This document shows positions 19,146 through 58,754 of a stretch of 64,000 nt of DNA, piece by piece. The translations under genes were made by a program, and so were the position numbers. The notes under the pieces are model-generated. The model did no database searches. It was given only the letters and a program-made list of their open reading frames with translations, and was not told the origin of the DNA. This stretch comes from Clostridium sp. (GTDB taxonomy: Bacteria; Bacillota; Clostridia; TANB77; CAG-508), in the NCBI GenBank assembly GCA_018371855.1, contig JAHAKD010000001.1, positions 219,478 through 283,477 on the forward strand, given 5' to 3'. The stretch's first letter is position 1; every line of letters begins with the position of its first letter.

Positions 19146-19628
19146 ATGGATAGTATTAAAGAAAATATGATTGTTGCTAAATCTTTTGTTAATTCATTAA
19201 AAAACAAAGAGGATTTTGTTATTGATAATTTCTTTAAAAAACATAATTTAAGTTTAGAATTAAAAGAAGAACTGAAAGAACAATTAAATGATATAAATAT
19301 TTTACAGGAAACAAAGACTTTCAAAATATATCAAATAGCATTAATAAATAAATTACAAGAATATTTTTTTAAGACAACTTTTATTGGAGATACTTTAAAT
19401 AAAGTAGATGGATTCTTATGTGATTTAAATAATAAAAAAGTACTTTCTTTAACCAATATTGAAGCAAAATATACTTTTAAATATTTAACAGATTCTTTAA
19501 ATAAAGAAGAAAAAATAATAGAAAAAGAAACTCTATATAATGAAGAAGTTGCAAATGCAAAATTTAATTATTTTTTTGATTTACAAAAAAATAACTCTAA
19601 AGATAATGAGGAGGAAGATGAACTATGA
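19146..19628 (+). CDS. Acidic-tail protein (C-terminus NEEEDEL), function unknown
   Basis: 160-aa ORF. Its stop overlaps the next ATG (CTATGA). Confidence 0.6.
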   Translation: MDSIKENMIVAKSFVNSLKNKEDFVIDNFFKKHNLSLELKEELKEQLNDINILQETKTFKIYQIALINKLQEYFFKTTFIGDTLNKVDGFLCDLNNKKVLSLTNIEAKYTFKYLTDSLNKEEKIIEKETLYNEEVANAKFNYFFDLQKNNSKDNEEEDEL

Positions 19629-19897
19629 GTAATATTACTTTAGACAAAAAAATGAAAAATAGGCTAGAAGATACTTATGAAAAAATGCGAATATAAATTG
19701 AAACTTTAAAAAATACATGGAACTCTATTCCTAGTCAAATTCGAGAACAGTTAAATGCTTAATTTAATGAAGATTATACTCCAGATTATTGTATTAGATG
19801 GCTCGAAACATCAATTGATGATTTATATAGAAATTCAGATGAAGTATTTGAAGATTTAAAAAATGAATTAGAAAATGAAGATGAAAATGACCTCTAA
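19625..19897 (+). pseudogene. Decayed acidic-tail gene with two in-frame TAA stops (C-terminus ENEDENDL)
   Basis: A single 90-codon frame from the coupled ATG to TAA at 19895, interrupted by TAA at 19694-19696 and 19760-19762. Confidence 0.55.
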
Positions 19898-19957
19898 ATA
19901 TTTAAAATATTTTAATGACTAATTTTAAAAAAATTGCATAAAATAATAGTAAATCTA

Positions 19958-19986
19958 TTGATTTTTAAATGGATTTGTGCTATATT
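19958..19986 (+). promoter_or_regulatory. Sigma-A-type promoter for the antitoxin RNA/toxin operon
   Basis: TTGATT-17 nt-TATATT with a TG-extended -10 (TGTGCTATATT). Confidence 0.55.
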
Positions 19987-19996
19987 AAATATAGTA

Positions 19997-20101
19997 ATAA
20001 ATGGTATGTCGCAACCTATGCTTGCGACTAATAAATGGGCTAGTGAATAAATGGTATGTCGCAACCTATGCTTGCGACTGATAAATGGGCTAGTGAATAA
20101 A
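19997..20101 (+). ncRNA. Type III antitoxin RNA: 2.1 tandem copies of a 50-nt repeat
   Basis: Period is exactly 50 nt (20001 vs 20051) with one mismatch (20031 A vs 20081 G). Each unit holds the hairpin GTCGCAA-N7-TTGCGAC. It lies between a promoter and a terminator, directly upstream of a ToxN-like gene. Confidence 0.7.
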
Positions 20102-20110
20102 TAGTTTTTT

Positions 20111-20139
20111 AGGAGATTCTTTTTAGACCAGAATCTCCT
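20111..20139 (+). terminator. Hairpin/attenuator between the antitoxin repeats and the toxin gene
   Basis: AGGAGATTCT-N9-AGAATCTCCT. A terminator in this position is typical of toxI-toxN operons. Confidence 0.55.
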
Positions 20140-20160
20140 TAATTAATTTAGGAGGAAATA

Positions 20161-20928
20161 ATGAATATACAACAAGGATATTTTTATTTCATTTCAGATT
20201 TATATTTTGATAGAGTACAAGATAAAGAATTGTTACAAAATAAAGAAAGTGGAACCAAAAGACCAGCTTATTATTGTTTCAAAGATAGTAATAATAATAG
20301 AATCTTTTGGTTTGTTCCTATTTCTAGTAGAGTTGAAAAATATAAAAAAATATATAATCATAAAATACAAAAACAAAAGAATAAAGGAATAAAAAAGCCA
20401 AAAGTTGATACTATCGTTTTTGGTAAAATTTCTGGAAAAGAAAATGTATTTTTAATACAAAACATGTTTCCTGTAATTGATAAATATATTATTGATACTT
20501 TTCTTAGAAAAAATGCTTTAGTTTCAATAGATGATAAAACAAAAAAAGAGATAAACCTAAAAGCTAATACAGTATTATCTTTAGTAAACAAAGGTATTAA
20601 AAGTATGGTATTTCCAGATATATTAAAATTGAAAGGAATTATGAAAGATGAAATTTTAAAACAACTTGAAATTGAAGATATATTTAACAATAAAAAACTT
20701 ACATTTATAGATGAATTTAAAAACATTATTAGTAATGCAATTAATAAAGAAGATATATCTTTATACCTACAATACATAAAAGATTCCAATATATTATCAG
20801 AATATACTAATATTTTAAATTCTAGTGATGATATTACTAAAATAAAAACAGACATAATATTAAAAACAGACGAATTGTTTAATGTAGAAGAAAACTCTGA
20901 CGAAGAAACAAATGAAGATGAAGTTTAA
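20161..20928 (+). CDS. toxN: Type III toxin (ToxN/AbiQ/TenpN-superfamily endoRNase-like) with ~85-aa C-terminal extension ending in the acidic tail TNEDEV
   Basis: FYFISDLYFDRVQDKELLQNKESGTKRPAYYCF...WFVPISSRVEKYKKIY resembles the ToxN/AbiQ/TenpN N-terminal pattern. The repeat-terminator-toxin architecture also fits. Confidence 0.65.
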   Translation: MNIQQGYFYFISDLYFDRVQDKELLQNKESGTKRPAYYCFKDSNNNRIFWFVPISSRVEKYKKIYNHKIQKQKNKGIKKPKVDTIVFGKISGKENVFLIQNMFPVIDKYIIDTFLRKNALVSIDDKTKKEINLKANTVLSLVNKGIKSMVFPDILKLKGIMKDEILKQLEIEDIFNNKKLTFIDEFKNIISNAINKEDISLYLQYIKDSNILSEYTNILNSSDDITKIKTDIILKTDELFNVEENSDEETNEDEV

Positions 20929-20964: not shown

Positions 20965-21011
20965 AAGCCATTAAAATAGTAGTTAAGCTATTTTAATGGC
21001 TTTATTTTTTT
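20965..21011 (+). terminator. Rho-independent terminator
   Basis: AAGCCATTAAAATAG-N8-CTATTTTAATGGCTT followed by a T-run. Confidence 0.7.
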
Positions 21012-21027: not shown

Positions 21028-21079
21028 TTTAAATATTTAAAGGTATATATTTTAATGAAAATTGCAATATTTGTGCAAT
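21028..21079 (+). promoter_or_regulatory. Conserved promoter/operator cassette, subtype I (P3, upstream of virD4)
   Basis: Palindrome TTTAAATATTTAAA, then GGTATATATTTTAAT, then ATTGCAATATTTGTGCAAT. Confidence 0.55.
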
Positions 21080-21140: not shown

Positions 21141-23711
21141 ATGGGAAACAAAAAATTTAGAACGAAACTTACAATGACTATTATTTCTACTATACTTGCT
21201 TCTGTTTTATCAGTAATAATCGCATATTGCTTGATGGAAATATTCCTAAGAACACCATTAAATTTATTAAATTTTAATATTGGTAATATGTTTAAAACGA
21301 TATTTGGAAATCAAGATGGAATCCAAATGTTTATAATTATCTTACTTGCGTTTATGATTTTAATATTATCTACGGCATTTAAGTTGTTTAAATTAAACGA
21401 TTATAAATCTAAACTCTATGAAGTAACACCAGATATAAAAATACCATATCCAGTAAAAAATCAAACACAATTTGGTTCGTCATGGTGGCTTACTAAAAAA
21501 CAGATAGATAATCAAAAAGAATTGTATAAAAATACATTTGATCCAGAAAATCCAACAATTCATAAACTTATGAAAATGTCTGAAACTCAAAGAAAAGATG
21601 AAGAAAAATTAATGAAAGAAATTGATGAAGGAAAGCCTGTTCCAAAACTTTCTACCGATAATTTAGAGCCAAAAAATCCAAATTTTGAAACTAAAATATT
21701 TAAAAAAGGTGGACTTGTTGTAGGAAAAAAGGATAGAACTGTTGTAAATTTTGTAAAACAATTTCCTTTTATAAAAACTAGAAAAGTAGAAGATATTTAT
21801 TATATTGGAGATGATATGCACAGTTTAACTGTTGGGGCAACACGTTCAGGAAAAACAAGAAATTTAGTTTTAGAAACAATAGCAAATACAGGTTTAGCTG
21901 GTGAAAGTATGATTTTATCAGATCCAAAAGGAGAGCTATTTGAATATACATCTGGTATGCTTAGAGAATTAGGCTATAATGTTGTAACATTAGATTTTAA
22001 AAATCCACTTAAAAGTTCAAAATATAATTTCTTGCAACCTGTTATTGATATGATTGATAAAAATGATATTCCAAAAGCAGTTTCTTACTGTTCTGATATT
22101 GTAAAATCTTTAGTTGGTGAAAAAGGTAATCAAGAAGCTATATGGTACAATGGAGAACAAGCCGTTGAAAAATGTGGAATTATGGCAGTTGTAATGGAAA
22201 ATTCTGATAGAGTAAATGACCAAAAAATTTGGACTTTATTTAAAGAAAAAATTTGTGAAGATTATCAAAAATATTTAAATTCTCCAGAAGCTAAAAAATT
22301 AAATGAATATGGAGAAGAACTAGAAGCAGACACTATTGAAGAATTTAGAAAGAGAAAGTATGAAGATTATAAAAAAGACTATTATAGATTATCTAAAGAA
22401 GAAAGAAAAAATATAAAATATAAATATTTTGAAAATGCTAAAGAGAAGATATTAAACTATATTATTGAAAATAATACTAATTCTGAAAATTTAGACTTTT
22501 TATTAACAGCAAAAGATTTTAATACTGAATTAAATAAAGCTATCAATGAAAATTATGAAGAGTTACAAAATAAATTTAAAGAATTAAATGAAGATAGTTC
22601 TAATGAATTTTTAGAAGTTGTTTCTAATTGGAAAAACTTATTAGACTTAGAGCCACACCCAGAACTTCAAAATCTGAGAAATGTTTATGAATTTATTGCA
22701 AGAATGTGTGTTGAGCAATCTGATAAAACAATGCTAATTGATACATTCTTAGATAAATTACCACAAGATCACCCAGCAGTAACACAATTTCAAAGTGCAA
22801 AAATTGCACCTTCTAAAACAAGAGGCTCATTCTTTACAAGTGCATTAGCAACACTTTCAATATTTACAGATCCATATATTGCTGATATGCTTGCAAAAAG
22901 TGATATAGATGTAACTTCATTTAACACTCAAAAAACAGCCCTATACATGATTTTGCCTGATGAAAAAACAACCTTTTATGGTTTATGTTCGCTATTCGTA
23001 AATCAATGCTACACGAAACTTTGCGAAGTTGCAGACGCACAAGGTGGAAGATTAAATAATAGGGTAAACTTTATACTAGATGAGTTTGGTAACTTTAGTG
23101 CTATTAATAATTTTGGTGGATTCTTAACCGTTGGTGGTGGTAGAGGAATACGTTTTAATTTGTTTTTACAGTCATTTTCACAATTAAATGACAAGTACGG
23201 AGATAAAGTTGCACCAAATATTTTGGATAACTGTCATGTCTGGACTTATCTTAAAACTTCTAATGCAGATACAGCCAAGAAAATTAGTGAAAAATTAGGA
23301 ACATATACAACTTCAACATGGTCAGAAAGCAATTCCTCTAGTGGAGGAGCAGTAAACGAATCTAAATCTCACAATTTAAGTAAAAGAGAACTTTTAACAC
23401 CAGATGAGGTTTTAAGAGTCCAAAGACCATATTTACTTACAATGATTTCTGGAATTAATCCTTGTATGACTTATGCTCCAGACCTTTCTAAATGGTATTT
23501 TAATAAAGTATTAGGATTAGGAGATCCAGCATGGAATACAAAAATTAGACAGATTAGAGAAGATGAAAGACCAGAAAGAAGTGTGTCACAAGCACTTTTA
23601 TGGGATATTGATAGAAAAATGAAAAAAGAAAAGGAGAAAGAAGAAGAAAACAAAAGAAGAGAAAAAGAATTAAATTGGAAAAGACAATTAATAAATAGCA
23701 ATTTTAATTAA
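21141..23711 (+). CDS. virD4: Type IV coupling protein (VirD4/TraG family) with enlarged K/E-rich insertion
   Basis: N-terminal TM helices. Walker A GATRSGKTR. Walker B VNFILDEFGN. ATG 21141 after AAGGAGGAAAAGAGAAA. Confidence 0.85.
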   Translation: MGNKKFRTKLTMTIISTILASVLSVIIAYCLMEIFLRTPLNLLNFNIGNMFKTIFGNQDGIQMFIIILLAFMILILSTAFKLFKLNDYKSKLYEVTPDIKIPYPVKNQTQFGSSWWLTKKQIDNQKELYKNTFDPENPTIHKLMKMSETQRKDEEKLMKEIDEGKPVPKLSTDNLEPKNPNFETKIFKKGGLVVGKKDRTVVNFVKQFPFIKTRKVEDIYYIGDDMHSLTVGATRSGKTRNLVLETIANTGLAGESMILSDPKGELFEYTSGMLRELGYNVVTLDFKNPLKSSKYNFLQPVIDMIDKNDIPKAVSYCSDIVKSLVGEKGNQEAIWYNGEQAVEKCGIMAVVMENSDRVNDQKIWTLFKEKICEDYQKYLNSPEAKKLNEYGEELEADTIEEFRKRKYEDYKKDYYRLSKEERKNIKYKYFENAKEKILNYIIENNTNSENLDFLLTAKDFNTELNKAINENYEELQNKFKELNEDSSNEFLEVVSNWKNLLDLEPHPELQNLRNVYEFIARMCVEQSDKTMLIDTFLDKLPQDHPAVTQFQSAKIAPSKTRGSFFTSALATLSIFTDPYIADMLAKSDIDVTSFNTQKTALYMILPDEKTTFYGLCSLFVNQCYTKLCEVADAQGGRLNNRVNFILDEFGNFSAINNFGGFLTVGGGRGIRFNLFLQSFSQLNDKYGDKVAPNILDNCHVWTYLKTSNADTAKKISEKLGTYTTSTWSESNSSSGGAVNESKSHNLSKRELLTPDEVLRVQRPYLLTMISGINPCMTYAPDLSKWYFNKVLGLGDPAWNTKIRQIREDERPERSVSQALLWDIDRKMKKEKEKEEENKRREKELNWKRQLINSNFN

Positions 23712-23783: not shown

Positions 23784-23872
23784 TTTAAATATTTAAAGGT
23801 ATATATTTTAATAAGAAATGCAATATTTATGCAATTTTTTTAACAAAAACTAGATTTTTTTCCTTCTATAAT
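23784..23872 (+). promoter_or_regulatory. Conserved promoter/operator cassette, subtype I (P4)
   Basis: TTTAAATATTTAAAGGTATATATTTTAAT...AATGCAATATTTATGCAATTTTTTTAACAAAAAC...TATAAT. Confidence 0.6.
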
Positions 23873-25075: not shown

Positions 25076-25417
25076 ATGGCATTTTTAATTGGATTATTAA
25101 TTTCAACTGTATTAGGTTTAATTATTAGAGAATGTTTAGGCTTTGTTGTAACATTACTTAATAATTTCTTTTACGACGCATTTGCCGTTGAAACTAACTT
25201 CTATGATATGGTAAATACAGGAGTATTTAATATAAATACTCTATATCATGCGATATATATATTTGCTATTTCTATACTTATTATGTTATTTGTAAAAAAG
25301 ATGATTGAAACCTATTTTGCATGGAGCAATGGTGATCCAGAAAATAATCCATTAAATGTTTTAATACGGATTTGTGGAAGCTTTAATAATCATGATAAGT
25401 TTTGGATTTCTGTATGA
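25076..25417 (+). CDS. Polytopic membrane protein, VirB6/TrbL-like candidate, N-terminal part
   Basis: RBS GGAGGA and TM helices. The frame ends inside the overlap with 25374-25931. Confidence 0.45.
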   Translation: MAFLIGLLISTVLGLIIRECLGFVVTLLNNFFYDAFAVETNFYDMVNTGVFNINTLYHAIYIFAISILIMLFVKKMIETYFAWSNGDPENNPLNVLIRICGSFNNHDKFWISV

Positions 25418-25931
25418 AACTTTTGTAAATATTTTATATAGTTTCTATACTTCTATTACAACAGCAGGATTTGGCTCAGCTTCTGATTTACAGTCTATGT
25501 TAGGAACATTTACGGTGAGTACAGCTTTAATAAATTCAATAGGATTATTTATATATGCAATAATAGCATTTCAATTTGTTTTAATTTACTTCCAAAATTT
25601 AAGTAGAGGTATTGAAATATTAATTTTAAGATTTGGTATTCCATTTGCATGTATTGGACTTTTAAATGCGGATAAAGGAGTATTTAGAGGATATATTCAA
25701 CAATTTGTTAAAGTTTCTTTTACTGTAATAGTTCAACTTACGTTATTAAGATTAGCAATCACTCTATTAGTAAATGGAAATGGAATATTAGCTTTAGCAA
25801 CTTCATCACTTGCTATGAAAACGCCAGGATTATTATCTCAATTCTTAACAACTTATGGTGGAACAGATGGAAAAGCTGGAAAAATAGTACATAATGTGGG
25901 AATCGTTGCAGGTATGATGAAAAAACATTAA
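25374..25931 (+). CDS. Polytopic membrane protein, VirB6/TrbL-like candidate, C-terminal part
   Basis: Lies in the +1 frame relative to 25076-25417, open from 25365. GTG start with no RBS. Four or five TM helices. Confidence 0.45.
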   Translation: MEALIIMISFGFLYETFVNILYSFYTSITTAGFGSASDLQSMLGTFTVSTALINSIGLFIYAIIAFQFVLIYFQNLSRGIEILILRFGIPFACIGLLNADKGVFRGYIQQFVKVSFTVIVQLTLLRLAITLLVNGNGILALATSSLAMKTPGLLSQFLTTYGGTDGKAGKIVHNVGIVAGMMKKH

Positions 25932-25950: not shown

Positions 25951-26571
25951 ATGTCAGCTATTGTATTAGATAAAAAATTTTTTGATAATAATAAAAGATT
26001 TGAATTAAATGTAATAAATAAAGAAGGAAGAATAGCAACATTAAAAAAGCAAATTGATTTATTTCATATATTAAAATCAAGACATGATTTTAATAAAAAA
26101 GAAGAAAGAAATTGGGCTGTTCAACATGGTCTATTTGAAAAATTTTGGTATGATTATGCACACCCAGAATTTGACCAAATGAACGCAAGAGGTATCAGTG
26201 TTCCAAATGTTTTAAATGAAATAATAAGACATCAACAAGAATACGGCTTAAATGTAATATCTTGCATATATGATAAAAAATGTATGTATAATGTGATGAA
26301 TAGTTTAATAATAAATTTAAAAGATACTACTAAAAAAGAAAATGTAATAAAAAGTTGTAAAAGATATATCAAAAATTTACAAAATAATATCAAATATTAC
26401 AGAAAAAATTTAAATTCTAAAGAAGAAGAAGAAATAGAAAATACAAATATGCAGATTGCATATAACAATATAAAACATCTTCCAAACTTTAATGAAACTT
26501 TTTTAAAAAATAACGAAAAGAATTTAAGCCAAAACAATAATGATGAAGAAACAGAAGAAGATGAGCTATAA
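25951..26571 (+). CDS. Acidic-tail protein (C-terminus ETEEDEL), function unknown
   Basis: 206-aa ORF with RBS AGGAGGC. Confidence 0.65.
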   Translation: MSAIVLDKKFFDNNKRFELNVINKEGRIATLKKQIDLFHILKSRHDFNKKEERNWAVQHGLFEKFWYDYAHPEFDQMNARGISVPNVLNEIIRHQQEYGLNVISCIYDKKCMYNVMNSLIINLKDTTKKENVIKSCKRYIKNLQNNIKYYRKNLNSKEEEEIENTNMQIAYNNIKHLPNFNETFLKNNEKNLSQNNNDEETEEDEL

Positions 26572-26648: not shown

Positions 26649-27503
26649 ATGAACCAAAATACTTATATCAATGTAAAAATGACAAAACAAGAAGCAATAA
26701 AATATTATGCAAATAAAATAGTCGAAGATTCAATTGAAGATTGTATGGAATTAAATTATTGCATGACAAATGAATATTATGAAGATAATGGATTTGTAAA
26801 AGAAAATCAAGATGAAATATTAGAAGAAATTAAAAAAGATGAAAGAATAGCAGATGTATATTTAAACAAATCAAGTAAGCCATATACCTTTGATATGGTA
26901 TTTTGGTCTGACTATTGTCCTGGATATTATGAAGATTATACAATGTCAAGGTTTATTCAAAATGATATAATAAAAGACTTCATAGATCAATTAATAAAAA
27001 TAAAAGATAATAGCATTTTCATACATAATACAACTACACAAAACATTATAAATAAATTACTAACAGCAAATAACTTCATCGTTTCATTATCAGAAGAAGA
27101 AAAAGAAGGTGCTAATAATATGTTAAAAGAATTTATTTGTGGCACAGGATTTTTTTATAAATATTTAGATAAAGACAAAGTTGTTGTAAATAAGGAAAAT
27201 ATAGCAGAATTAATAACAGAATTACAAGAAAAATATTACCAATTAGAGATATATAAAGATAGTAAACATATAAAAGATATATCATCAGAAGATATAGATG
27301 AAATGTTGAAAATATATGAAAAAGACAAGATTTATCCTGAAAAATATATTGGGTTATTTATATGTAAAGATGATAAAACAAAAACTTATTTAGCAATAGA
27401 TAACAGAAATGGAGATATGTATATAGAAGAATTTAAAACAGAAAAAGAATGTATGGATTATTTATTAGGAGAAGAAGATCAAGAGGAGGAAGATGAACTA
27501 TGA
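26649..27503 (+). CDS. Acidic-tail protein (QEEEDEL) with YxAIDNxxG module
   Basis: 284 aa. Contains GLFICKDDKTKTYLAIDNRNGDMYIEEF, a module shared with 53537-54208 and 57819-58754. Confidence 0.65.
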   Translation: MNQNTYINVKMTKQEAIKYYANKIVEDSIEDCMELNYCMTNEYYEDNGFVKENQDEILEEIKKDERIADVYLNKSSKPYTFDMVFWSDYCPGYYEDYTMSRFIQNDIIKDFIDQLIKIKDNSIFIHNTTTQNIINKLLTANNFIVSLSEEEKEGANNMLKEFICGTGFFYKYLDKDKVVVNKENIAELITELQEKYYQLEIYKDSKHIKDISSEDIDEMLKIYEKDKIYPEKYIGLFICKDDKTKTYLAIDNRNGDMYIEEFKTEKECMDYLLGEEDQEEEDEL

Positions 27504-28567
27504 TAATTAGAAACAAAGAAACAAAGGAATATATTCCTGTAAAAAATAAATATGGATATTCTAGTTTAGATTTTCAAACTGCTTTTCTTTATATGAGTAG
27601 ACTTCCAGAAAAAGAAAGAAATACTTTAGAAATATATGATAGGGAGCAAAATAAGATAATAGAACCTAAAAAATATGTATCAAATGATAGATATTTACTT
27701 TTCTTAGATAGTAAAGGAATTAATTTAGAAGATTATGCTATGGGAAAAGTTGAATTTAATACTAATGTTGAATATATGGAATTTATCGATAATCTCTCTC
27801 TAAAATTTGAAAATGATATAGGAAAACCTGTTTTATCTAATCAAGATGAATTTACAGATTATATGAAATATAAAGTATTAGGTGCTATTGCATTTAATGA
27901 AGCTTTAAATAATTTAGGAGTGGGAATCATAACTTCATCACCACAGATGAGTTATATGCTAGATAAATATAATATTTCGGAAGAAACAAATTTATCTTTA
28001 TACAAAAGAATTTCTGATAAATGGGAACAAGGTCAAAAATTAAGAATAGTTAGTAATTATAAAGAAGAAGTATTAGACAAAATTCCAACAAAATATTTAG
28101 ATAAATATTTAAAAGTTCTACCCAATGAAAAAGCAGATTCACATGAATTGTATAGAGATATTTCTAAGTATAAAAGAATTGTAGAAAATATTGATAAAAT
28201 AGAAGATAAAAAAGAGCCTGTTAAATTTTTAATTAATTATTCTGAAAATAGGGAATTAAGAAAAGATGATGTTTTAAATTTTAAAGAAATGGAAAGTAAA
28301 ACATACTTGGCAACATTAGAAGTAAAAGCAAGAAATAATGAAGATTCAAAGAAATATGGAGAAGAATTTCATACTTACGACAAAGTAGATTTTACAATAA
28401 TTTTAGATGATAGAAAAGATTTTAAAATTTATTTAGATAACAGAGAAGATATTGGCGATTATCAAAGTTTTAAATCATTTATGAAAAATACTTACATAGA
28501 TGAATTTAATAATAAAATAACTAAAATGTTAAATGAAGCAGAAGAAAGTGAGGAAGAATCTATTTAA
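27500..28567 (+). CDS. Acidic-tail protein (EAEESEEESI), function unknown
   Basis: 355 aa with ATGA-coupled start. The last 10 aa are identical to those of 35236-35688. Confidence 0.65.
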   Translation: MIIRNKETKEYIPVKNKYGYSSLDFQTAFLYMSRLPEKERNTLEIYDREQNKIIEPKKYVSNDRYLLFLDSKGINLEDYAMGKVEFNTNVEYMEFIDNLSLKFENDIGKPVLSNQDEFTDYMKYKVLGAIAFNEALNNLGVGIITSSPQMSYMLDKYNISEETNLSLYKRISDKWEQGQKLRIVSNYKEEVLDKIPTKYLDKYLKVLPNEKADSHELYRDISKYKRIVENIDKIEDKKEPVKFLINYSENRELRKDDVLNFKEMESKTYLATLEVKARNNEDSKKYGEEFHTYDKVDFTIILDDRKDFKIYLDNREDIGDYQSFKSFMKNTYIDEFNNKITKMLNEAEESEEESI

Positions 28568-30584: not shown

Positions 30585-30673
30585 TTTAAACATTTAAAGA
30601 TATAGATTTTAATAGAGAATGCAATATTTATGCAATTTTTTTAACAAAAATTACGTTTTTTTCTTTCTATAAT
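30585..30673 (+). promoter_or_regulatory. Conserved promoter/operator cassette, subtype I (P5)
   Basis: TTTAAACATTTAAAGATATAGATTTTAAT...AATGCAATATTTATGCAATTTTTTTAACAAAAATTACG...TATAAT. Confidence 0.6.
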
Positions 30674-30707: not shown

Positions 30708-31331
30708 ATGGGTAAGTTCAAATTATTTAGTCGTTCTAATAAAAATAAATCAGGGCAAAAAGAAGAAATATCAGCAAATACATTTTTAAATATTAGAACT
30801 GTGCAAGATGGAAAAATCTATACAATAGACAATAAAATTTTAGGAATTTTAAGAATATATCCAAAAAATTGTAACTTAATGAGCCAAGATGAAAGAAAAG
30901 CACATGCAAGAGTTCTAACCTCTAATATGGCTACAGAACTAAAGCCATTTAAACTGTATTTTGCAAATCGACCAGTAGATTTACAAAGAAATCAAGACTA
31001 TCAGGCTATGCTTATGGATAATGAAGCGAATTCTACTAAGTTCTATCTTTTAAATCAAAGAATGAAGTCGTTTGGTATGTTGTCAGCAACAGGCAAAGCA
31101 CAAGAATCTGAAATTTACTTAATCATTTGGGAAACAAAACTAGATGACCATTCAGCAGTAGAAATTGATAAAAGATTAAATGAAATGAAAAGAAACTTAT
31201 CAAATGCAACATATAAAACAGAAATTTTAAATGATAAGCAAATAATTCAAGTCATTAATGGCTTTACTAATCCAATTACGGCATATTTAGAAGATCAAGA
31301 TTATATGGATAATGTAGTTCAAATAAAATAA
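30708..31331 (+). CDS. T4SS-associated protein resembling a stand-alone VirB4 N-terminal domain (tentative)
   Basis: RBS GGGAGGAG. LNIRTVQDGKIYTIDNKILGILRIYPKNCNLMSQDE...FKLYFANRPVDL resembles the N-terminal region of Gram-positive VirB4 proteins. Confidence 0.35.
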   Translation: MGKFKLFSRSNKNKSGQKEEISANTFLNIRTVQDGKIYTIDNKILGILRIYPKNCNLMSQDERKAHARVLTSNMATELKPFKLYFANRPVDLQRNQDYQAMLMDNEANSTKFYLLNQRMKSFGMLSATGKAQESEIYLIIWETKLDDHSAVEIDKRLNEMKRNLSNATYKTEILNDKQIIQVINGFTNPITAYLEDQDYMDNVVQIK

Positions 31332-31349: not shown

Positions 31350-34300
31350 ATGAGCAAAAAAATATTTAAAAATACAACTATTCTATTATTAATATTTTTC
31401 ATGATAATTCAAATTATATTACCTAGTCTAGTTCAAGCTAATTATACATTTCCTATGGACGCATATTTAGTTTCAAGTCATACAACACCATATATGATTT
31501 ATTATAAAGGGCAACGTTCACACGCTTCTTTTGTTACATACAATTATAATGGTGTAAACTATCCAGCATATTGTATGAATGATGGAAGTCCAGGAGCAGA
31601 AACAAATCCATATACTGTTCATGTTGATGGAGTATGGAATAATAATGCAATATGGAGAGTTGCATTTCATGGCTATCCTTATACAACGCCAGCAAGTATG
31701 GGATTAAATAGTGATGATGAAGCATTTTATGTAACGAAACATGCTATGTATTGTGTTTTAGGACAAAGAAATATAGCAGATTATTCACCAATGTCAGGAT
31801 ATGAAAGAGTATATAATGCTTTAGTAAATTTAGTAAATTATGGATTTAATGGAGGAGATGTATATCAATCAGCAAGAGTTGATATTACTAAAGAAGGAAA
31901 TTTATATAAAGATAATATTGGTGGAACTAACTATTATTCACAAAATTATAGAATCACTTCACCAGTTGAACTTGCAAGCTATGATGTAGAAAGATTGAAT
32001 TTCCCTTATGGCACTAAAATATTTAATATGTCAAATGGAGAACAATATAACTTTACAGGAGAACAAACTATTAAAGTTTCTATACCAGAAACAAGTATTA
32101 CTTCTGATGTAAATGGTACAGTAGTAGTACAAAATGCAAATTGTAAAACATATCCTATTTTATATGGAAACACATCAGTACCAGGTACTCAAAACTATTG
32201 TCTAGTCGGCGATCCATACGAATTTGCAGGAGCAAATATTAGTGAACAATTTAGAGGAAATGTTTCTACTATAACAGTAAATAAAACAGATGTAGAAACT
32301 AATCAAGCAATAAATGATACTGAATTTCAATTATTAAAAGATGGTCAAGTTTTACAAACTAAAACTACAGATGATAACGGAAAAGTAACATTTACAGATT
32401 TATATGCAGGAAATTACACAGTAAAAGAAACAAGAACTAATGATAATTATGTTCCAAATAATCAAGAACAACAGCAAAGCTTAATCTATAACCAAAATGC
32501 AACAATGAATTTAACAAATGAACATAAGAAAGGTACTTTAAAAGTAAATAAAATTGATAAAGATAATCATAAAATTCAGATGGGACATGTCTTATTTGAT
32601 GTATATTCACGAGAATTTGATAAAGTTATAGATACCATTAGAACTGATGAAAATGGTGAAATAACAATACCTAATATGAGAACTGGTACTTATACTCTAA
32701 AAGAAAAAGAAACAAATAAATGGTATACTTTAGCACCAGATACAGATGTAGAAGTTTTTTGGGAGCAAGAAAAGCCAGTATCTGAATATACTATAGAAAA
32801 TGAAAAGAAGAAAGGTCAAATTAAAATTTATAAATTTGATCAGGATTTTGCTTCAAATCCAGTTTCTTATGTAGAAGATGATAGTAATCTTCCAGACAAG
32901 ATAATGCTTGAAGGAGTTAAGTTTGATATATATGATGATAGTGGAAACAAAGTACAGACAATAACAACAGATGAAAATGGTGAAGCTACTAGTATGAGAT
33001 TACCTGTTGATACAACTTATACAGTAAAAGAGGTAGAAACGTTAGATAATTATTATTTAAATACAGAAACACAAGAAGTTCATTTTAATAATGTTGATGG
33101 TGATCAACAGACTTTATATGTACTAAATGAGCATAAAAAAGGAAATGCTAAAATCACTAAAGTAGATAAAGATGACCATGATACTAAATTAGGTGCAGTC
33201 GAATTTGATGTTTATTCTTATGAATTTGATACAGTTATAGGTCGTGCTACAACAGACGCAAATGGAGAAATTAACATAGAAAACTTAAGAACAGGTAAAT
33301 ATCAATTAAGAGAAACAAAGACAAATGATTTTTATAAATTAGCAGTTCCAGTTGATTTTGAGGTAAAAGATAAAGAAACTACTGATGTAGTAGTAGAAAA
33401 CGAAAAGAAAAAAGGACAAGTAAAAATCATTAAAGTTGATAAAGATAATAATCAAATAAAATTACAAGGTGTAAAATTTAATATTTATGATAAAAATGGA
33501 AAACTAGTAGATACAATAACTACTGATAAAAATGGAGAAGCAACAAGTTCAAAACTTCCATTAATGTATAACCCTTATTCAGTAAAAGAAGTTGAAACTA
33601 ATATGTTATATGAATTAAAAGAAACACCACAAACAATAGAATTAGAAGAAGATCAAATAAAGAATTTAACTTTTGAAAACGAAAGAAAGAAAGGTCAATT
33701 ACAAGTAACTAAAGTTGATTTAGATAATCCAGATACAAAACTTGAAGGAGTTACATTTGAAATATACAAAGAAGATGGAACAAAAATAGATACTATGACA
33801 ACAGGCGAAAACGGAATTGCAACAAGCCATAGACTTCCAGCTTATGATAGATATATTTTAAAAGAAGTAAAAACATTAGATAATTATAGATTAAATACTA
33901 AGGAAACACCTTTTGTTCTTGCATGGAATCAAACTTTAAAATTAACAGTACAAAACGAAAAGAAGAAAGGTCAAATACAAATTTATAAATTTGACCAAGA
34001 TTATCCATTACACATGAATAGAAGTTCAGATACAGAAGAAACTCCAGAAATTATGCTTGAAGGTGTTAAGTTTGAAATATATGATAAAGACCAAAACTTA
34101 GTAGATACTATAGTAACAGACAAAGATGGAACAGCAACAAGTAAAGAACTTCCAATAGACAATATTTATACAGTAAAGGAAGTTGAAACTAAAGAAAATT
34201 ATATATTAAATAATGAAACACAAGAAGTTCAATTTACAGAAGATAAAGAAATACAAACATTAGAAATTGAAAATGAACATGAGAAAGGTAATGTTAAAAT

Positions 34301-35235: not shown

Positions 35236-35688
35236 ATGAGTGAAACATATCAAGAGATGAAAAAAAGACAAGAAGAAGAATTAACAAAAATTCCAAAAAA
35301 GTTTGCTTTTACAGATGAACAATTTAAACAAGGAATGAAAGAATTGGGCTTAAATGAAAATGATACAGATAAAATTGTAGGTATTGGAGCAGGTGGCTTC
35401 ATGAAAAAAACAGATGTAGAAGATTATAAAGGATTGCAAAAAAAACATTTTAAAGAATTTTGGAAAGAAATTGTTAATGATAAAGTTGGAGATAAGTTTA
35501 TAAAAGATATGTTTTTATATGAATTAAATAATCACGAATATGGTTATACGAATGATATTACAGATACACTAATGAGTTTAGGATTAAGTGATAAAGATAT
35601 TAGAGAAAATGAAAACTTAAGAACAGGCTTAATACTAGCAGAAAAGGAAATATTAGAGGCAGAAGAAAGCGAAGAAGAATCTATTTAA
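35236..35688 (+). CDS. Acidic-tail protein (EAEESEEESI); conserved small protein type found on conjugative elements
   Basis: 150 aa with RBS AGAGGGA. Contains FAFTDEQFKQGMKELGL...FLYELNNHEYGYT. Confidence 0.65.
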   Translation: MSETYQEMKKRQEEELTKIPKKFAFTDEQFKQGMKELGLNENDTDKIVGIGAGGFMKKTDVEDYKGLQKKHFKEFWKEIVNDKVGDKFIKDMFLYELNNHEYGYTNDITDTLMSLGLSDKDIRENENLRTGLILAEKEILEAEESEEESI

Positions 35689-36559: not shown

Positions 36560-36607
36560 AAAGCTCTTAAAGTAGTAATTAAGCTATTTTAAGGGCTTTA
36601 TTTTTTT
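36560..36607 (+). terminator. Rho-independent terminator (homologous to 20965-21011)
   Basis: AGCTCTTAAAGTAG-N8-CTATTTTAAGGGCT followed by a T-run. Confidence 0.6.
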
Positions 36608-41226: not shown

Positions 41227-41550
41227 ATGGATTATCTAGAAGAAAAGAAAGATAATAATTTTATGAATCTAGTTGAATTATTACATTACTTATATATTGA
41301 CGCAAATAACTTAGCAACTCCAGAAACAGAAAAAGAATTATCAGAAGAAGCAAAATTTAATCCTCTTGTATTAGAATATAAACTTGCTAGAGTTTACTAC
41401 GAAAATGATCCAAAAGGATTAAATGATTATAAGAAACAAATGATAGACAGATTTTCAGCTAATGAATATATTCAAGCAACAAGAATTTTCAGTTTAACTT
41501 ATTTAGATAAATATTCAGAAAATTTTACTGATGATGAATTAGAAGTTTAG
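41227..41550 (+). CDS. Small protein with variant acidic tail (TDDELEV)
   Basis: ATG 41227 after AGAGGTGAATATAGTT. Confidence 0.5.
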   Translation: MDYLEEKKDNNFMNLVELLHYLYIDANNLATPETEKELSEEAKFNPLVLEYKLARVYYENDPKGLNDYKKQMIDRFSANEYIQATRIFSLTYLDKYSENFTDDELEV

Positions 41551-44280: not shown

Positions 44281-45509
44281 ACATAAAAATAGGAAAATTT
44301 AATTTTATTAACAATAGAGAAAATAGAATATTCTTAAGTGGATATAACATTGATGAACGATTATTTAATTATTTCTATTTAGATGGAAAAGAAGATACCC
44401 TTTATGTAAGTTCAAGAGATAATTTTGATAAAATAAATGATTTTAAATATAATAATTATTCAGAATTTGACTTAGAAAGAAAATTATCAAAGAATTTTCT
44501 TGTTCTTGACTATAATATGGAAATAAAAAATGCTGTAAATAGATTTATAAATGATAAAGCTAGACAAATTTATAGAACAGAATCATATTCACGTTATAAG
44601 TTATACAAAGATATTTCTTTAAGTGAAATACTTTCAGTAGATAAAAATTCTAAATTTTCTTTAAGACATACTTACGATTCTTATATAGATGTAGAAGATA
44701 ATAAAATAATAGTAGATGGAATAAAATTAGATCCTTACACACAAGTCATTTTAAATTTAGAAGATTTTTATAAAAATGGAAGATTTAATAATGAAATAAA
44801 AGCAACTTTAATAAAATTAGAATTGCAAGATAATATAGCTCCTAAATTCGTTTCAACTTTAATTGAAATTAATAGTTTTTTACAAAATAAAAATTCTGTA
44901 AATATATTATTTAATGATTGTGAAAAAGCTAAAATCGAACCTAGTTGTGGATCGTTTCTATATTTTGGGCATAATTATATAGAATTATCATTAACAGAAA
45001 AAACATGTAATTCATTGAAAAAAACAAACTCTAATATTAATCCAAATAATTTAAAATTAGGAGATTTACAGGGTTTATCTTATGGTAAAGAAGTATTAAA
45101 TATTGAATCAAAAAATTTAAAAAATATTGTAAATCAAATAGTTATTTCTCCTAAAGATAAATTATTCTATAGATTAGATGTATTAGAAAAAAATATAAAT
45201 GAAGATTATAGTAATATTTATAATGAAAATATAAATCTAAATTTACCATCTGATTTAAAAACACTTAAAAACTTAGATGAATTAGAAAGTATAACTTATG
45301 GTACAGGAGTTAAAGAAATAGATAATAAAATAAGTGATTTATCAAAAAAACTATATGACATAAATATTATTAGAAATACTAATAATGTCGAAGAATTTAA
45401 TTATGCAATAAAAGATTTAAATGATTATGAACTAAATTCTATTGCAAATATAAAATCGTACATAATTTCTAATGAGGAAAGTGAAGAAACAGAGGAAGAT
45501 GAATTATGA
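44277..45509 (+). CDS. Acidic-tail protein (ETEEDEL), function unknown
   Basis: 410 aa with ATGA-coupled start. Confidence 0.65.
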   Translation: MNIKIGKFNFINNRENRIFLSGYNIDERLFNYFYLDGKEDTLYVSSRDNFDKINDFKYNNYSEFDLERKLSKNFLVLDYNMEIKNAVNRFINDKARQIYRTESYSRYKLYKDISLSEILSVDKNSKFSLRHTYDSYIDVEDNKIIVDGIKLDPYTQVILNLEDFYKNGRFNNEIKATLIKLELQDNIAPKFVSTLIEINSFLQNKNSVNILFNDCEKAKIEPSCGSFLYFGHNYIELSLTEKTCNSLKKTNSNINPNNLKLGDLQGLSYGKEVLNIESKNLKNIVNQIVISPKDKLFYRLDVLEKNINEDYSNIYNENINLNLPSDLKTLKNLDELESITYGTGVKEIDNKISDLSKKLYDINIIRNTNNVEEFNYAIKDLNDYELNSIANIKSYIISNEESEETEEDEL

Positions 45510-45915: not shown

Positions 45916-46170
45916 ATGGAAAATGAACAAAAAAGAAGTAAATTTATTGAAATTGCAAATAGGAGAGTAGGAGATATATTACATAAAGTAAATAATTTAA
46001 AACCTCTTGCAAATACTACTAGTTATTCTTATACTCAAAAAGATGTAGATAAAATATTTGGAGCTATTGAAAATGCAGTAGCAAATGTAAAAGAATCTTT
46101 TAAACCAAAAGATAATAAAAAAGAAGATGTATTTGATTTATTAAGTGATGACGAAGAAAGTGAGGATTAA
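45916..46170 (+). CDS. Small protein with loose acidic tail (SDDEESED)
   Basis: 84 aa with RBS AAGGAGAG. Confidence 0.6.
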   Translation: MENEQKRSKFIEIANRRVGDILHKVNNLKPLANTTSYSYTQKDVDKIFGAIENAVANVKESFKPKDNKKEDVFDLLSDDEESED

Positions 46171-55691: not shown

Positions 55692-56725
55692 TTTTATATG
55701 GAAAAATCATTGATGAACCACGATACGACCAAGTAGAAGAAACCAATGAAACTTATTTTTACATAACTGTAGAGGATTTAAAACAAAATAAACAAAAAGT
55801 AGTTCTTTCTTATAATGTTAGTAATGATTATGAAATATATCAAATAGGTAAAAACATCAAAGCAGAAATTAAAATAGCAGAAGATATAAATTTAAATATA
55901 GCAACTAAAATTAATTTTATTACAAAACAAGAATTAATAGATAAGGCTCTAAATGAATACAGGAAAGGTAATATCTCTTTAGATAATTATATAAATGTAT
56001 GTAAAAGAAATTTACAAAATGATAATACTAAAGAACAAAAGAATTTATATAAACAAGATATTAAAAGATATAATATTTTAAGTTTTAAAGATAAAGAAAT
56101 TATAGAAAATCTTACAGAAGATGAAATTTATAGAAAAATTGAATCTTACTTAAAAGAATCTTTACAACTTGCTGATATTGATACTGATATAATTGGTATT
56201 CAACTTGTCGGATCAAGAACTAAAGGGATAAATAAATCAATTTCAGATTTAGATGTACTAGTAGAATATAATAACTCTGAAATTCACGAAGATGACCTTT
56301 TTAACTATTTAAATGATGAAGATGATAGATTATATATCAATGGAGTGAAAGTTGATTTTAATCCAATTAATGAAGAAAGGTCAGGGTATAATATAAAATC
56401 ATGGCTAAAAGAAAATTATAACTACGATAAAAATTTAGATGAAAAAGGAAATATAGTACATAACAATATGGAGGAAACTCAAAAGAAAGTAGAAACAATA
56501 TATGAAAAAGTAATTACTGATGGGCTAAAAGATACATTGTCTGGAAACTATGTAATAGATTTAAATAAGCTTAAATTAAATTCTAAGGAAGAAAATTTGT
56601 TTATTAATATGTTAAATAGTGATAATAGAATAAACGACCTAGAAATTAATCCTAAAACGAAAGAAATAGATATAATTTTCTACTTAGATTATTGCCCTAA
56701 CGTAGAAGATGAGGAGGAAATCTAA
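55688..56725 (+). CDS. Nucleotidyltransferase-fold protein (MNT/Pol-beta-like) with acidic tail (EDEEEI)
   Basis: LVGSRTKGINKSISDLDVLV is the GS-x9-DxD NTase signature. Confidence 0.55.
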   Translation: MILYGKIIDEPRYDQVEETNETYFYITVEDLKQNKQKVVLSYNVSNDYEIYQIGKNIKAEIKIAEDINLNIATKINFITKQELIDKALNEYRKGNISLDNYINVCKRNLQNDNTKEQKNLYKQDIKRYNILSFKDKEIIENLTEDEIYRKIESYLKESLQLADIDTDIIGIQLVGSRTKGINKSISDLDVLVEYNNSEIHEDDLFNYLNDEDDRLYINGVKVDFNPINEERSGYNIKSWLKENYNYDKNLDEKGNIVHNNMEETQKKVETIYEKVITDGLKDTLSGNYVIDLNKLKLNSKEENLFINMLNSDNRINDLEINPKTKEIDIIFYLDYCPNVEDEEEI

Positions 56726-56727
56726 TT

Positions 56728-57804
56728 ATGGGATTTACATTAGTAAAAAATTTAAGAGTTAATAAGGAAACAGGTGTAGTTTCTGGAGATTTTGCAGATA
56801 GTAATACTTTTGATTATTATAATAAACATATATATGAGCATTTAAAGGATATTTACCAAGATAAAGAAGGAAAACGTAATCCATTACAAAAATATTCTAG
56901 GTTTATTAGTGATATTATTGCTGGCAATATTCAAGGCTCTATTGGTAAATATAGTAAATTATCAATACCAAACTATTATGATGATTTAAGCTATTTTATG
57001 AGAGAAAGCGAAAATACTAAGGAAGATCCATTTGTTCTTACATATTTAAAATATAAAGACGAAATAAATAAAACTCTAACAGATAAACCAGAATATATAA
57101 TTAAAATAAATAATAATTTTTATTTACAAAAATTAAACAAAAAAACATATATTCCTACATATAAAAAAGAAAATGCACAATTATTTGCAGAATCAGATTT
57201 TAATAGAATTAAAGAAGCTTTTAACAATAGTATAGCAATAAATATTAATACAAATGAAGAAATAAGTTTAAAGAATTATGAAAGAAAAGTTATTCCTTCT
57301 GAAATTGAAAAAAATTACAATTTAAAGATTCCTACAAATGAATCATTTAAAGATATTTCTAAAAAAATAAATGATTTTAAACTTTATATAGATTCATTAA
57401 GTAATAAGAATGTAAATAAAAACACAATTACAGAAGTATTTAATGAAGAAATAAATAGAATTTTAAACAATAATCTTCCTGGTGAAAAACCGTTTTTTAG
57501 TTTTGGAAGGAAAACAGAAAATAATGAATTACCTAATATTGTAACAATACTTTATCCGATATTAAATGAAACTACGTCATTAGATGATAATAAGAAATAT
57601 TATGTTGGATATAAATTTAAATGCTTAAATCTTGAAAAAAATATTGAAAATGAATATGACGGAGGACATTTATCAATAGGTTATTTATTAGATAGTGAAT
57701 CAACTTTAAAAAAAGAATTATATAATGTTGAGAAAAATTTTGAAAAAGATGTTTTAAATTATGAAAAACACAAAAATGAAGAAGTAGAAGAAGATGAAAT
57801 TTAA
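56728..57804 (+). CDS. Acidic-tail protein (EVEEDEI), function unknown
   Basis: 358 aa. The SD GAGGAGGA lies in the upstream tail codons. Confidence 0.65.
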   Translation: MGFTLVKNLRVNKETGVVSGDFADSNTFDYYNKHIYEHLKDIYQDKEGKRNPLQKYSRFISDIIAGNIQGSIGKYSKLSIPNYYDDLSYFMRESENTKEDPFVLTYLKYKDEINKTLTDKPEYIIKINNNFYLQKLNKKTYIPTYKKENAQLFAESDFNRIKEAFNNSIAININTNEEISLKNYERKVIPSEIEKNYNLKIPTNESFKDISKKINDFKLYIDSLSNKNVNKNTITEVFNEEINRILNNNLPGEKPFFSFGRKTENNELPNIVTILYPILNETTSLDDNKKYYVGYKFKCLNLEKNIENEYDGGHLSIGYLLDSESTLKKELYNVEKNFEKDVLNYEKHKNEEVEEDEI

Positions 57805-57818
57805 AGAGGTGAATATAA

Positions 57819-58754
57819 ATGCAAAATTTTTTAAGTGATGAAGAAAAAATGAAGGACTTTAAAAAATTATCAAAAAATGAATTTTTAGATAGTTATAGTT
57901 ATTTAACAGAAGAAGAATATGATAATACTAAAAAACTGTATAATTCTTTATTAGATAAAATTAAAAGTTATGATGAAATTAAAATTAGACAAGAAGAATT
58001 GCAAACAAAATTAAAGAAAATAGAAAATCAAATATTAAATATGATACCTAATAATATATCAAAAGAAAATTTTAGTAATCTAATTAATGAAATTAGATAT
58101 GATTATCATGAAAAAGATAATATAGAAAATAGAGAAATTAATATGTTAAATGCTTTCAAACAAAATAATATTAAGCTTTGTAATACTTATTTAACTAAAG
58201 GAGTTAGTCCAGATAAAATTTTTCAATATATAAGAAATGTTGGATATAATAATTTTTGTTTAGATCAACAAGAATTTTTTAATAAGAATTTTAAACCTAA
58301 AGTAATTACTAAAGAACAATTTGATGTATTATATAAAAAATTTGAAAATAAACAAGCTTTCACTAAAGAAGAATTAGGAAACTTTTTAATTAAGGAAAAT
58401 GGAATTTATACAGCAATAGATAATACATCTGGAAATTTGTTTACAGAAGATTTTAAGGATAGAACTTTAGCTCTTAGATATTTAAATGGTGAAGGAATAG
58501 AAAAATTAAGAGATGAAGAATGTAGGTATGAAATAGGAATATATGAAACAAAAGAAGATTATGAGCAAGGCGAGCCTTTTCAGCACGATGTAATTTCAGA
58601 TTTAAAAGAAGCAGAAAATATATTAAATAATTTAATGAAGTCAAATAATTATTATTCTGGATTTGTATTAGACCAAAAAACTGGAATTGAAGAATATGCG
58701 TATTATAGTGATGAGCAAATAGAAGATGAAGAAGGCGAGGAAGATGAAATTTAA
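57819..58754 (+). CDS. Acidic-tail protein (EGEEDEI) with YxAIDNxxG module
   Basis: 311 aa. Contains GNFLIKENGIYTAIDNTSGNLFTEDF. Confidence 0.65.
   Translation: MQNFLSDEEKMKDFKKLSKNEFLDSYSYLTEEEYDNTKKLYNSLLDKIKSYDEIKIRQEELQTKLKKIENQILNMIPNNISKENFSNLINEIRYDYHEKDNIENREINMLNAFKQNNIKLCNTYLTKGVSPDKIFQYIRNVGYNNFCLDQQEFFNKNFKPKVITKEQFDVLYKKFENKQAFTKEELGNFLIKENGIYTAIDNTSGNLFTEDFKDRTLALRYLNGEGIEKLRDEECRYEIGIYETKEDYEQGEPFQHDVISDLKEAENILNNLMKSNNYYSGFVLDQKTGIEEYAYYSDEQIEDEEGEEDEI

Follow-up and report, generated by a model that had tools for sequence, protein, structure and literature searches.

We analyzed a 64,000-nucleotide stretch of DNA from a Clostridium sp. (contig JAHAKD010000001.1, positions 219,478 to 283,477), referred to below as the window, which is essentially one integrative conjugative element (ICE). 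Many of the soluble proteins encoded beside the T4SS (type IV secretion system) genes of this element end in the same short acidic tag, with the eight-residue consensus E-E-x-E-E-D-E-[L/I/V]-stop. This tag is a selected, position-specific short linear motif at the protein level, and it is specific to an ICE clade of low-GC gut Clostridia. The simplest function for it is to be recognized by a single shared partner. We tentatively consider this partner to be a substrate receptor of the T4SS, with docking on an intracellular hub as the main rival.

A position-specific acidic motif at protein C-termini

A protein was scored as tagged under a strict rule if at least four of the five residues before the last were Asp or Glu and the last was Leu, Ile or Val, and under a loose rule if at least five of the last eight residues were acidic. 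Fifteen of the 74 curated plus-strand proteins of the window carried the strict form and 19 the loose form, in addition to a tagged pseudogene at 19625-19897. The frequency of the strict motif at internal positions of the same proteins (8 in 17,927 windows of residues) predicts 0.03 tagged C-termini, which gives a binomial P of ~1e-35 for the observed number. All 15 strict-tagged genes were found among the 44 genes within 19146-58754, as compared to none of the 30 in the rest of the window (Fisher 2e-4), and the regulatory and DNA-processing left part of the element was free of the tag (0/26 genes).

A profile of the motif was derived from 48 non-redundant tails pooled from the window and from its relatives L005, L012, L016, L054 and L056 (here and below, L with a number denotes a locus or contig compared with the window). 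Counting the last residue as -1, position -5 was Glu in 40 tails and Asp in 8, position -4 was Glu in 46 and Asp in 2, position -3 was Asp in 36 and Glu in 6, and position -2 was Glu in 46. The last residue was Leu in 30 tails, Ile in 12, Val in 4 and Phe in 2; position -6 was usually Glu, Ser or Thr, and positions -7 and -8 were mostly Glu. The preference for Asp at -3 had a P of ~3e-28, calculated over 48 tails that are not independent of one another. Codon usage in the tails was varied: ten different codons specify the terminal residue, and Ser at -6 is encoded by AGT, AGC or TCA. Two genes, 27500-28567 and 35236-35688, share an identical last 10 residues, as had been noticed in a reading of the window from its sequence only, and the corresponding 30 nucleotides differ at three positions, all of them synonymous. 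The Asp preference at -3, the varied codons behind conserved residues and the synonymous-only differences between identical tails thus indicate selection on the peptide. Hidden paralogy was ruled out as the source of the tags by an all-versus-all BLASTP comparison. The tagged bodies were mostly unrelated, as the sequence-only reading had stated, with two weak groups (26649~53537~57819 and 43054~55044) that depart from its description.

The tail DNA doubles as a ribosome-binding site. Of the 48 tails, 27 end in TGA, and in those that were inspected at base level this stop overlaps the start codon of the following gene as ATGA. GAGGA was present in 29 of the 34 tails with an adjacent downstream start, as compared to 5 of the 14 without one (Fisher 0.0013), and GAG, otherwise rare at 9% of Glu codons, forms this GAGGA approximately 9 nt before the start. 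In addition, tails are swapped between orthologues (e.g. EEESI to EEDEL), two unrelated genes have the identical 10-residue tail described above, and the tail DNA of the last tagged gene (GAGGAAGATGAAATTTAA, within 58737-58766) is the 5' arm of a terminator-like hairpin, pairing with a downstream ATCATCTTCTT that precedes a T-run. All of this would fit a function of the DNA or RNA itself, in which purine-rich 3' ends serve as Shine-Dalgarno (SD) sequences for overlapping genes or as cassette-shuffling junctions and the peptide is a by-product. However, the motif persists with GAA GAA codons and no SD at unit ends that are followed by terminators (20928, 36517 and 51169), and likewise at 26571, at 13419 in L012 and at 3458 in L054, so that SD use is an overlay and not the cause of the tag. 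Asp at -3 was equally frequent in tails without a downstream overlap, which rules out an SD by-product, including one in which GAT GAA at -3/-2 places TGA in the downstream frame. Other overlapping gene pairs of the window embed an SD without the motif. A coding-independent DNA motif was also ruled out: the pattern GARGARGAYGAR occurs 14 times on the plus strand, 12 of them in frame at exactly codons -5 to -2, and in the whole window it is found neither in intergenic DNA nor on the minus strand. Given that residue classes are kept through different codons and that the identical tails differ only synonymously, we regard an origin of the tag at the nucleic acid level as very improbable.

The terminal Leu codon shows a local bias. 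It is CTA in 6 of the 8 Leu-ending tails of the window (e.g. 19628, 26571, 27503, 44280, 54208 and 55691), a codon that makes up 10.6% of Leu codons in the window, and the bias becomes 7/9 when the CTC of the pseudogene is included; in relatives, the terminal Leu codons include TTA, CTT and TTG as well. This bias may stem from gene conversion acting locally, or from the sequence context where stop and start overlap as ATGA.

Retention among relatives and specificity to one clade of elements

Tails were kept in orthologues while the bodies diverged or were replaced, as the sequence-only reading would lead one to expect. In the family of 44277-45509, EE[ED]E[LI] was retained from 99% to 35% identity; the last 100 alignment columns were the most variable, with insertions and deletions in the linker before the tail. 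An exhaustive search with the LPD25-domain protein (27500-28567) yielded 18 cluster representatives, and most of the 17 that were fetched (25-67% identity) close in an acidic run followed by Leu, Ile or Met. At the slot of 26649-27503, L005, L012 and L056 have a 265-aa protein ending EEDEL instead, and in L005 and L012 this protein has no BLAST similarity to the window protein, yet ends EESEEDEL. Among close orthologues, the last eight residues were 70% identical, as compared to 68% for the body; exact identity was no higher in the tail because tails switch among the dialects EEESI, EEDEL and EENEL. In ortholog pairs with a body identity below 60%, the tail was ~63% and the body 46% identical. 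What is conserved is the motif class, not the exact tail sequence.

Acidic tails were present in homologues of the DUF7659 protein (35236-35688) above ~50% identity. The tail was absent from distant homologues, including an abundant Flavonifractor protein, two phage homologues and a homologue on a pLS20-like Paraclostridium plasmid. With DUF7659 tagged only in these ICE lineages, and with the CptIN, SpoVG and HipA_C bodies extended, the tag is a modular add-on to existing bodies. An AbiEii protein in L054 similarly ends DEDEEDDEI.

Close relatives of the element were found both in gut metagenomes and in metagenome-assembled genomes labeled uncultured Clostridium sp., Ca. Faecimonas intestinavium and Clostridium sp. 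CAG:354. In L005, L012 and L016, 23 of 70 genes were tagged, and in L056, 15 of 17 consecutive genes beside recombinases end EE[SE]E[DE][DN]EL. As a control set, we used the 25 other loci that a metagenome scan returned with a VirD4 alignment. None of their 285 genes had the strict tail, including 161 genes in 13 loci at a G+C of 0.32 or less. The strict tail was likewise found in 0/44 genes of a Mycoplasmatota plasmid (26.5% G+C, VirD4 31% identical) and in 0/53 genes of a pLS20-like Paraclostridium bifermentans plasmid (26.4% G+C), and none of 23 chromosomal flank genes was tagged. An artefact of low-GC composition is ruled out by these low-GC loci and plasmids, together with the untagged left part of the element itself, and the earlier view of the tail as more than such an artefact is borne out. 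Together with the retention in orthologues, every refuting condition of the sequence-only reading that was checked thus came out in favor of a real, selected tag at the protein level, and its interpretation is supported in part.

Other clostridial ICE types have acidic ends of their own kind on similar cargo. In L009 (3613-16068), around a DUF7659 gene of 50% identity, 9 of 25 genes have alternating acidic and hydrophobic ends (DIEMELDY, DITDDMF/Y, EIEMEVN and EKEMEMI); the carriers include ArdC-N/MPTase, PcfJ, NT5C and resolvase proteins, and a CHAP-domain protein is also encoded in this locus. The ends EIEDEMEI, NEMECDLE and QEMECELE occur in L006 (10001-16294), whose MobL relaxase ends DWENEL, and 8 of 18 genes in L027 (5421-13466) have looser, poly-acidic ends. 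The DUF7659 tail follows the local dialect in each such element, a pattern that could arise either if tails and receptor evolve together or if the short, repeated 3' ends undergo gene conversion. In two of the tail-less controls, L031 (~9638-10000) and L040 (~9590-10000), the gene directly upstream of VirD4 ends FDDFF[AS]D[DE]E, an acidic/aromatic C-terminus that recalls coupling-protein docking tails.

Tagged and untagged genes of the element

The C-termini listed in the sequence-only reading were all reproduced at their coordinates on the plus strand. The tag itself held for most of these proteins, and two are looser variants: a small acidic protein within the T4SS operon (41227-41550), which ends DDELEV and keeps this tail in L012 and L054, and a small protein (45916-46170) that ends DDEESED, loosely acidic and lacking an aliphatic last residue. 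The first tagged gene (19146-19628) encodes a soluble 160-aa orphan ending NEEEDEL (EEEDEI in the L005 orthologue); its tail DNA contains GAGGA, and its stop overlaps the next start as ATGA. The next gene is the pseudogene (ending ENEDENDL), which is interrupted by two in-frame stops; L005 has an intact version of 90 aa. Downstream, 19992-20928 appears by its sequence to be a complete type III toxin-antitoxin (TA) locus, with a 50-bp x 2.2 tandem repeat (19992-20102) as candidate RNA antitoxin, a hairpin (~20108-20140) and a 255-aa CptIN (ToxN-like) type III toxin ending ETNEDEV (20161-20928), behind which lies a terminator (20965-21002). The CptIN domain occupies residues 6-159 (NCBIfam NF047359, 1e-49, 168 bits as compared to a cut-off of 90), and a C-terminal extension of ~95 aa, unusual for such a toxin, follows it and closes in the tag.

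Further along, soluble tagged proteins of 206 aa (25951-26571, EETEEDEL, tail retained in the L005 and L012 orthologues) and 284 aa (26649-27503, QEEEDEL) precede the 355-aa LPD25 protein (27500-28567, Pfam 8.6e-16), which ends EAEESEEESI, as does the 150-aa DUF7659 protein (35236-35688, Pfam 7e-49). The SpoVG-like protein (35858-36517, EEAEEDEI) is followed by a terminator at 36560-36599. Three orphans come next, of 356 aa (41982-43052, SEEEEEI), 408 aa (43054-44280, EESEEDEL, weakly related to 55044-55691) and 410 aa (44277-45509, EETEEDEL), and then a 310-aa HipA_C-like kinase (50237-51169, EESEEDEI) with a terminator at 51181-51206. The SpoVG-like and HipA_C bodies are, like CptIN, extended, with the extension and tail at the end. 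Six consecutive tagged genes complete the series (53537-54208, 54205-55047, 55044-55691, 55688-56725, 56728-57804 and 57819-58754), of which 55688-56725 encodes a polymerase beta-type (pol-beta) nucleotidyltransferase (NTase; NTP_transf_2 2.9e-7). The ToxN-like RNase, HipA-like, NTase and SpoVG-like bodies recognized from the sequence alone were therefore all recovered by profile searches, which added LPD25 and DUF7659.

None of the tagged proteins has a predicted transmembrane segment. Conversely, the tag was missing from every membrane protein and both ATPases, from the peptidase, adhesins and sortase, and from all proteins of DNA processing, regulation and recombination, in agreement with the earlier claim that structural T4SS, DNA-processing, regulatory, surface and recombinase proteins lack the tag. 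In an AlphaFold2 model of 44277-45509, the last 13 residues (398-410) had a predicted local distance difference test (pLDDT) score below 50 and are predicted to be disordered; in the model of the DUF7659 protein (pLDDT 95), the tail is a lower-confidence continuation of the last helix. Foldseek comparison of two tagged families (pLDDT 84 and 95) with the PDB gave no match at E <= 0.001 and no functional clue, and PDB sequence searches with 30708, 40074 and 44277 gave nothing useful. Searches of PHROGs and NCBIfam with the orphans returned only the CptIN match and unnamed phrogs, and neither megablast of 25 kb nor tblastn of the LPD25 protein found a match among plasmids.

An operator/promoter module recurs in the transfer region, consisting of a palindromic TTTAAATATTTAAAGGTAT, ~16 nt, TGCAATATTT[AG]TGCAAT (a direct repeat TGCAAT-N5-TGCAAT) and then TATAAT. 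Full copies at 21028-21079 (plus strand), 23784-23835, 30585-30636, 36625-36676 and 51226-51277 precede VirD4, the pilin gene 23910, 30708, VirB4 and the second adhesin, respectively. Variants lie at 11956, 17205 and 45823, before ParB, the sortase and 45916, and half-sites at 29787 and 35695. The first element of the module had 11 matches, as compared to 0.06 expected, and the second 8, as compared to 0.1 expected. The module stands upstream of at least 8 transcription units, often just past a terminator, which suggests that a single regulator switches the whole regulon. Units led by the module open with VirB4, pilin, sortase or adhesin genes, and the tagged genes are distal members of these T4SS units and are therefore produced in the donor alongside the transfer machine.

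The window has a G+C content of ~24%, and nearly all gene-like open reading frames (ORFs) of at least 60 aa are on the plus strand. The left junction of the ICE is near position 260, where contigs L019 and L020 match the window from 264 on and diverge upstream; beyond the junction, one of these contigs has a tRNA-synt_2 gene and the other a metallophosphatase gene. The left flank of L020 differs from that of L019, and tRNA-synt_2 (Asn/Asp-tRNA synthetase-like) genes adjoin related elements at L056 13361-18273 (recombinase end) and L019 39-1430 (regulatory/left end). According to Pfam, the first 19 kb encode XRE regulators, DUF6076, a type IA topoisomerase, ParB, a weak MobA/VirD2-like relaxase (13992-15713, untagged) and a sortase. 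The region from 19 to 59 kb encodes, besides the tagged proteins, a monoderm T4SS made up of VirD4, two T4SS_pilin proteins, a split TrbL_4/VirB6, the VirB4 ATPase (36751-38580, plus strand, untagged) and an M23 peptidase, as well as two LPKTG adhesins with thioester and SpaA domains. Two tyrosine recombinases are encoded at 59569-61833.

The VirB6 (TrbL_4) gene is broken into two overlapping ORFs (25076-25417 and 25374-25931), likewise in L001, and is unbroken (290 aa) in L005 and apparently also in L012. This split, together with the tagged pseudogene, suggests that the present copy of the ICE may be transfer-defective. A 60-aa ORF at 49358-49540 matches residues 18-43 of the adhesin 31350-35153 with its first 26 residues, at 85% identity, and is probably the leftover of an adhesin N-terminus. 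The basic, soluble 207-aa protein encoded at 30708-31331 has a 'TraC-like' Pfam match (PF26593) and is among the best-conserved proteins across related elements (96-98% identity, as compared to 80-90% for its neighbors); no match was found for it in a PDB sequence search.

Candidate partners of the tag

A substrate receptor of the T4SS is the partner that we favor, at a confidence just short of even. This ICE clade adds the tag to nearly all soluble, non-ATPase accessory proteins that are co-transcribed with the T4SS, the tail being borne on a variable, indel-rich linker and predicted to be disordered where it was modeled. One element-encoded receptor would read this common address tag in the donor during mating, most likely on the substrate-receptor side of the T4SS, that is, the VirD4 coupling protein or a VirD4-bound adaptor. 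Separately encoded establishment, anti-defense or toxin proteins would then pass the channel C-terminus first into the recipient, as possible solo counterparts of the domains that are fused in polyvalent proteins. We infer each of these three steps, namely a single receptor, VirD4 in that role and subsequent export. The T4SS is favored because the tag is strictly associated with its operons, because cargo types such as LPD25 and the pol-beta NTase here, and ArdC and LPD16 in L009, have been assigned to early action in the recipient (PMC5512222), because basic patches of DotM bind acidic C-terminal signals (PMC5802825), and because there is evidence that conjugation systems pass on many proteins along with the DNA (PMC8406263, PMC11288057).

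Iyer, Burroughs, Anand, de Souza and Aravind (2017; PMC5512222) described LPD25, pol-beta NTase, LPD16 and ArdC-N/MPTase as domains specific to the polyvalent proteins of conjugative elements, with solo forms adjoining T4SS genes in conjugative elements of Firmicutes, and proposed the early action in recipients. The link to polyvalent proteins drawn in the sequence-only reading is therefore reasonable. Two of the ~20 tagged proteins belong to such families, the LPD25 protein and the pol-beta NTase, both in a T4SS neighborhood, and most of the others are orphans. However, polyvalent proteins fuse their domains, whereas the tagged genes are separate and occur alongside toxin-type bodies (CptIN, HipA, AbiEii) and orphans; no shared C-terminal tag was found in that paper under 'acidic', 'signal' or 'translocat'.

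The same reading had compared the tag to the E-block of Legionella Dot/Icm effectors, a portable, acidic, Glu-rich C-terminal signal of Legionella and Coxiella that DotM reads electrostatically within the type IVB coupling complex (PMC5802825). Both are Glu-rich stretches within the last ~30 residues of unrelated proteins, and the parallel is an analogy only. The E-block lies ~8-20 residues from the end in no fixed register and is followed by non-acidic residues (e.g. ...SENEEKEEENEESSRFTM; CegC3 and Lpg1663 peptides, PMC5802825), whereas the tag described here is terminal and position-specific, with an aliphatic end. Moreover, the E-block belongs to Gram-negative type IVB systems, in contrast to the monoderm VirB4/VirD4/VirB6/pilin/M23 machine studied here, with sortase-anchored adhesins and presumed bacterial targets, and no Dot/Icm family (DotL/M/N, IcmSW) was among the Pfam matches of any window gene. 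In Xanthomonas and Stenotrophomonas, polymorphic T4SS toxins share a conserved C-terminal element, XVIPCD, and VirD4 reads it through its all-alpha domain (PMC8740702). XVIPCD is a folded Gram-negative domain of ~120 residues with adjacent immunity genes, whereas the present tag is a short C-terminal motif.

The candidate receptor, VirD4, is an untagged coupling protein of 856 aa identified by Pfam (21141-23711, plus strand). It contains a helical, highly charged insert of ~170 aa (residues ~355-524, window 22200-22730) at the position of the all-alpha domain, for which no Pfam match was found. The insert is missing from the 53-63% identical VirD4 of L006 and from the matches in the tail-less loci L029 and L030. 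Speculatively, an unstructured polyanionic C-terminus might engage the DNA-binding channel of the VirD4 hexamer.

Several observations weigh against a T4SS receptor and against export. The longer VirD4 of the Mycoplasmatota plasmid (1030 aa) aligns across the region of the insert, though the plasmid has no such tails, and the insert is for this reason a lead and not a result. Most pLS20-like and CD1115-type VirD4 elements lack these tails, and the tag is therefore no general feature of Gram-positive T4SSs; the likeness of tails within one element could also stem partly from gene conversion of short repeated 3' ends. The relaxase, the canonical T4SS substrate, is untagged, and so are ParB and the topoisomerase; the system of the F-type plasmid pED208 translocates homologues of ParB. 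Several tagged bodies are TA or abortive-infection toxins (CptIN and HipA, and AbiEii in L054), which normally act inside the cell that encodes them, and the operon of six tagged genes has no immunity-like genes between them. Finally, VirB6 is split in this copy of the ICE, and one of the tagged genes is a pseudogene.

The untagged relaxase, ParB and topoisomerase, the toxin carriers, the lack of immunity genes and the inferred nature of export leave a non-secretory hub as a strong rival, which we judge distinctly less probable than a T4SS receptor, although the data are equally compatible with both. The tails would dock on an element- or host-encoded intracellular partner without export, such as a scaffold, a chaperone or holding factor, a relaxosome or single-stranded DNA-handling complex, or an inhibitor that silences toxic cargo. 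Acidic tails with a hydrophobic end are known to dock in basic or hydrophobic pockets, as for the C-terminus (DDDIPF) of the SSB (single-stranded DNA-binding) protein, T7 gp2.5 and gp4 on T7 DNA polymerase, and F TraD on TraM. The EEVD end of Hsp70 and Hsp90 docks on tetratricopeptide repeat clamps, and T7 uses such a tail on two different proteins to reach a single hub. SSB-type tails resemble the present one in their flexible linker, acidic run, terminal hydrophobic residue and free carboxylate, and an acidic run closed by an aliphatic residue with a free carboxylate is classic for a pocket-docking peptide. In SSB-type systems, however, one or two tail carriers serve many partners, whereas ~20 unrelated carriers occur per element here, and among the tagged window proteins we found no SSB domain, OB-fold, chaperone body, or Pro-Phe or aromatic end.

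A specific, selected C-terminal motif fits a hub equally well, as do carriers that are toxins acting in their own cell and a relaxase without the tag, and in L009 and L006 the alternating acidic and hydrophobic tails suggest that a partner is bound by beta-strand addition. On the other hand, no candidate hub was found; the small, basic, soluble and untagged proteins 30057, 30708 and 41571 had no informative matches. In addition, delivery accounts more naturally for the strict association with T4SS units and for the recipient-type cargo (LPD25 and pol-beta NTase, and ArdC in L009).

A generic physico-chemical or proteostatic role, in which the tail is a solubility or anti-aggregation bristle, an intramolecular shield for nucleic acid-binding enzymes, or a C-terminal cap that modulates proteolysis, whether by guarding against proteases that recognize non-polar C-termini or as a degron that shortens lifetime, is improbable. 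Looser acidic ends without a fixed motif do occur in L027, in the Flavonifractor locus L025 and in many distant DUF7659 and LPD25 relatives, and many tagged bodies are plausible nucleic acid binders (RNase, NTase, SpoVG). However, a generic role does not account for a position-specific motif (Asp at -3, Glu at -2, -4 and -5, an aliphatic last residue), for its absence from 382 genes of comparable low-GC conjugative elements, or for its confinement to one operon set. Generic stabilization and the DNA-level explanation are both much less likely than a receptor or a hub.

Returning to the T4SS receptor, its full extension is a possibility that we hold more cautiously still: the ICE clade would load 15-20 separate proteins per element into its conjugative T4SS by means of EExEEDE[L/I/V] and inject them into recipients, with related elements such as L009 and L006 using dialects of their own. 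Among the cargo would then be TA-type toxins, kinases and NTases, along with many proteins that have new folds. To our knowledge, no substrate signal is known for Gram-positive conjugation machines, and full-text literature searches gave no description of this tail. A 2025 review names effector translocation by Gram-positive T4SSs as a long-standing open question (PMC12857230), which a short, portable and position-specific tag would make directly testable. If export is true, the tag would be the first recognizable protein-translocation signal, with its effector repertoire, for a monoderm conjugation machine. It would reveal a large new set of effector or establishment proteins, mostly of orphan folds, and offer a handle for engineering protein delivery among Gram-positive gut bacteria. 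Should the tails instead dock on a hub, they would represent an unrecognized organizing principle of ICE accessory proteins and a simple marker that distinguishes cargo from machinery in unannotated elements.

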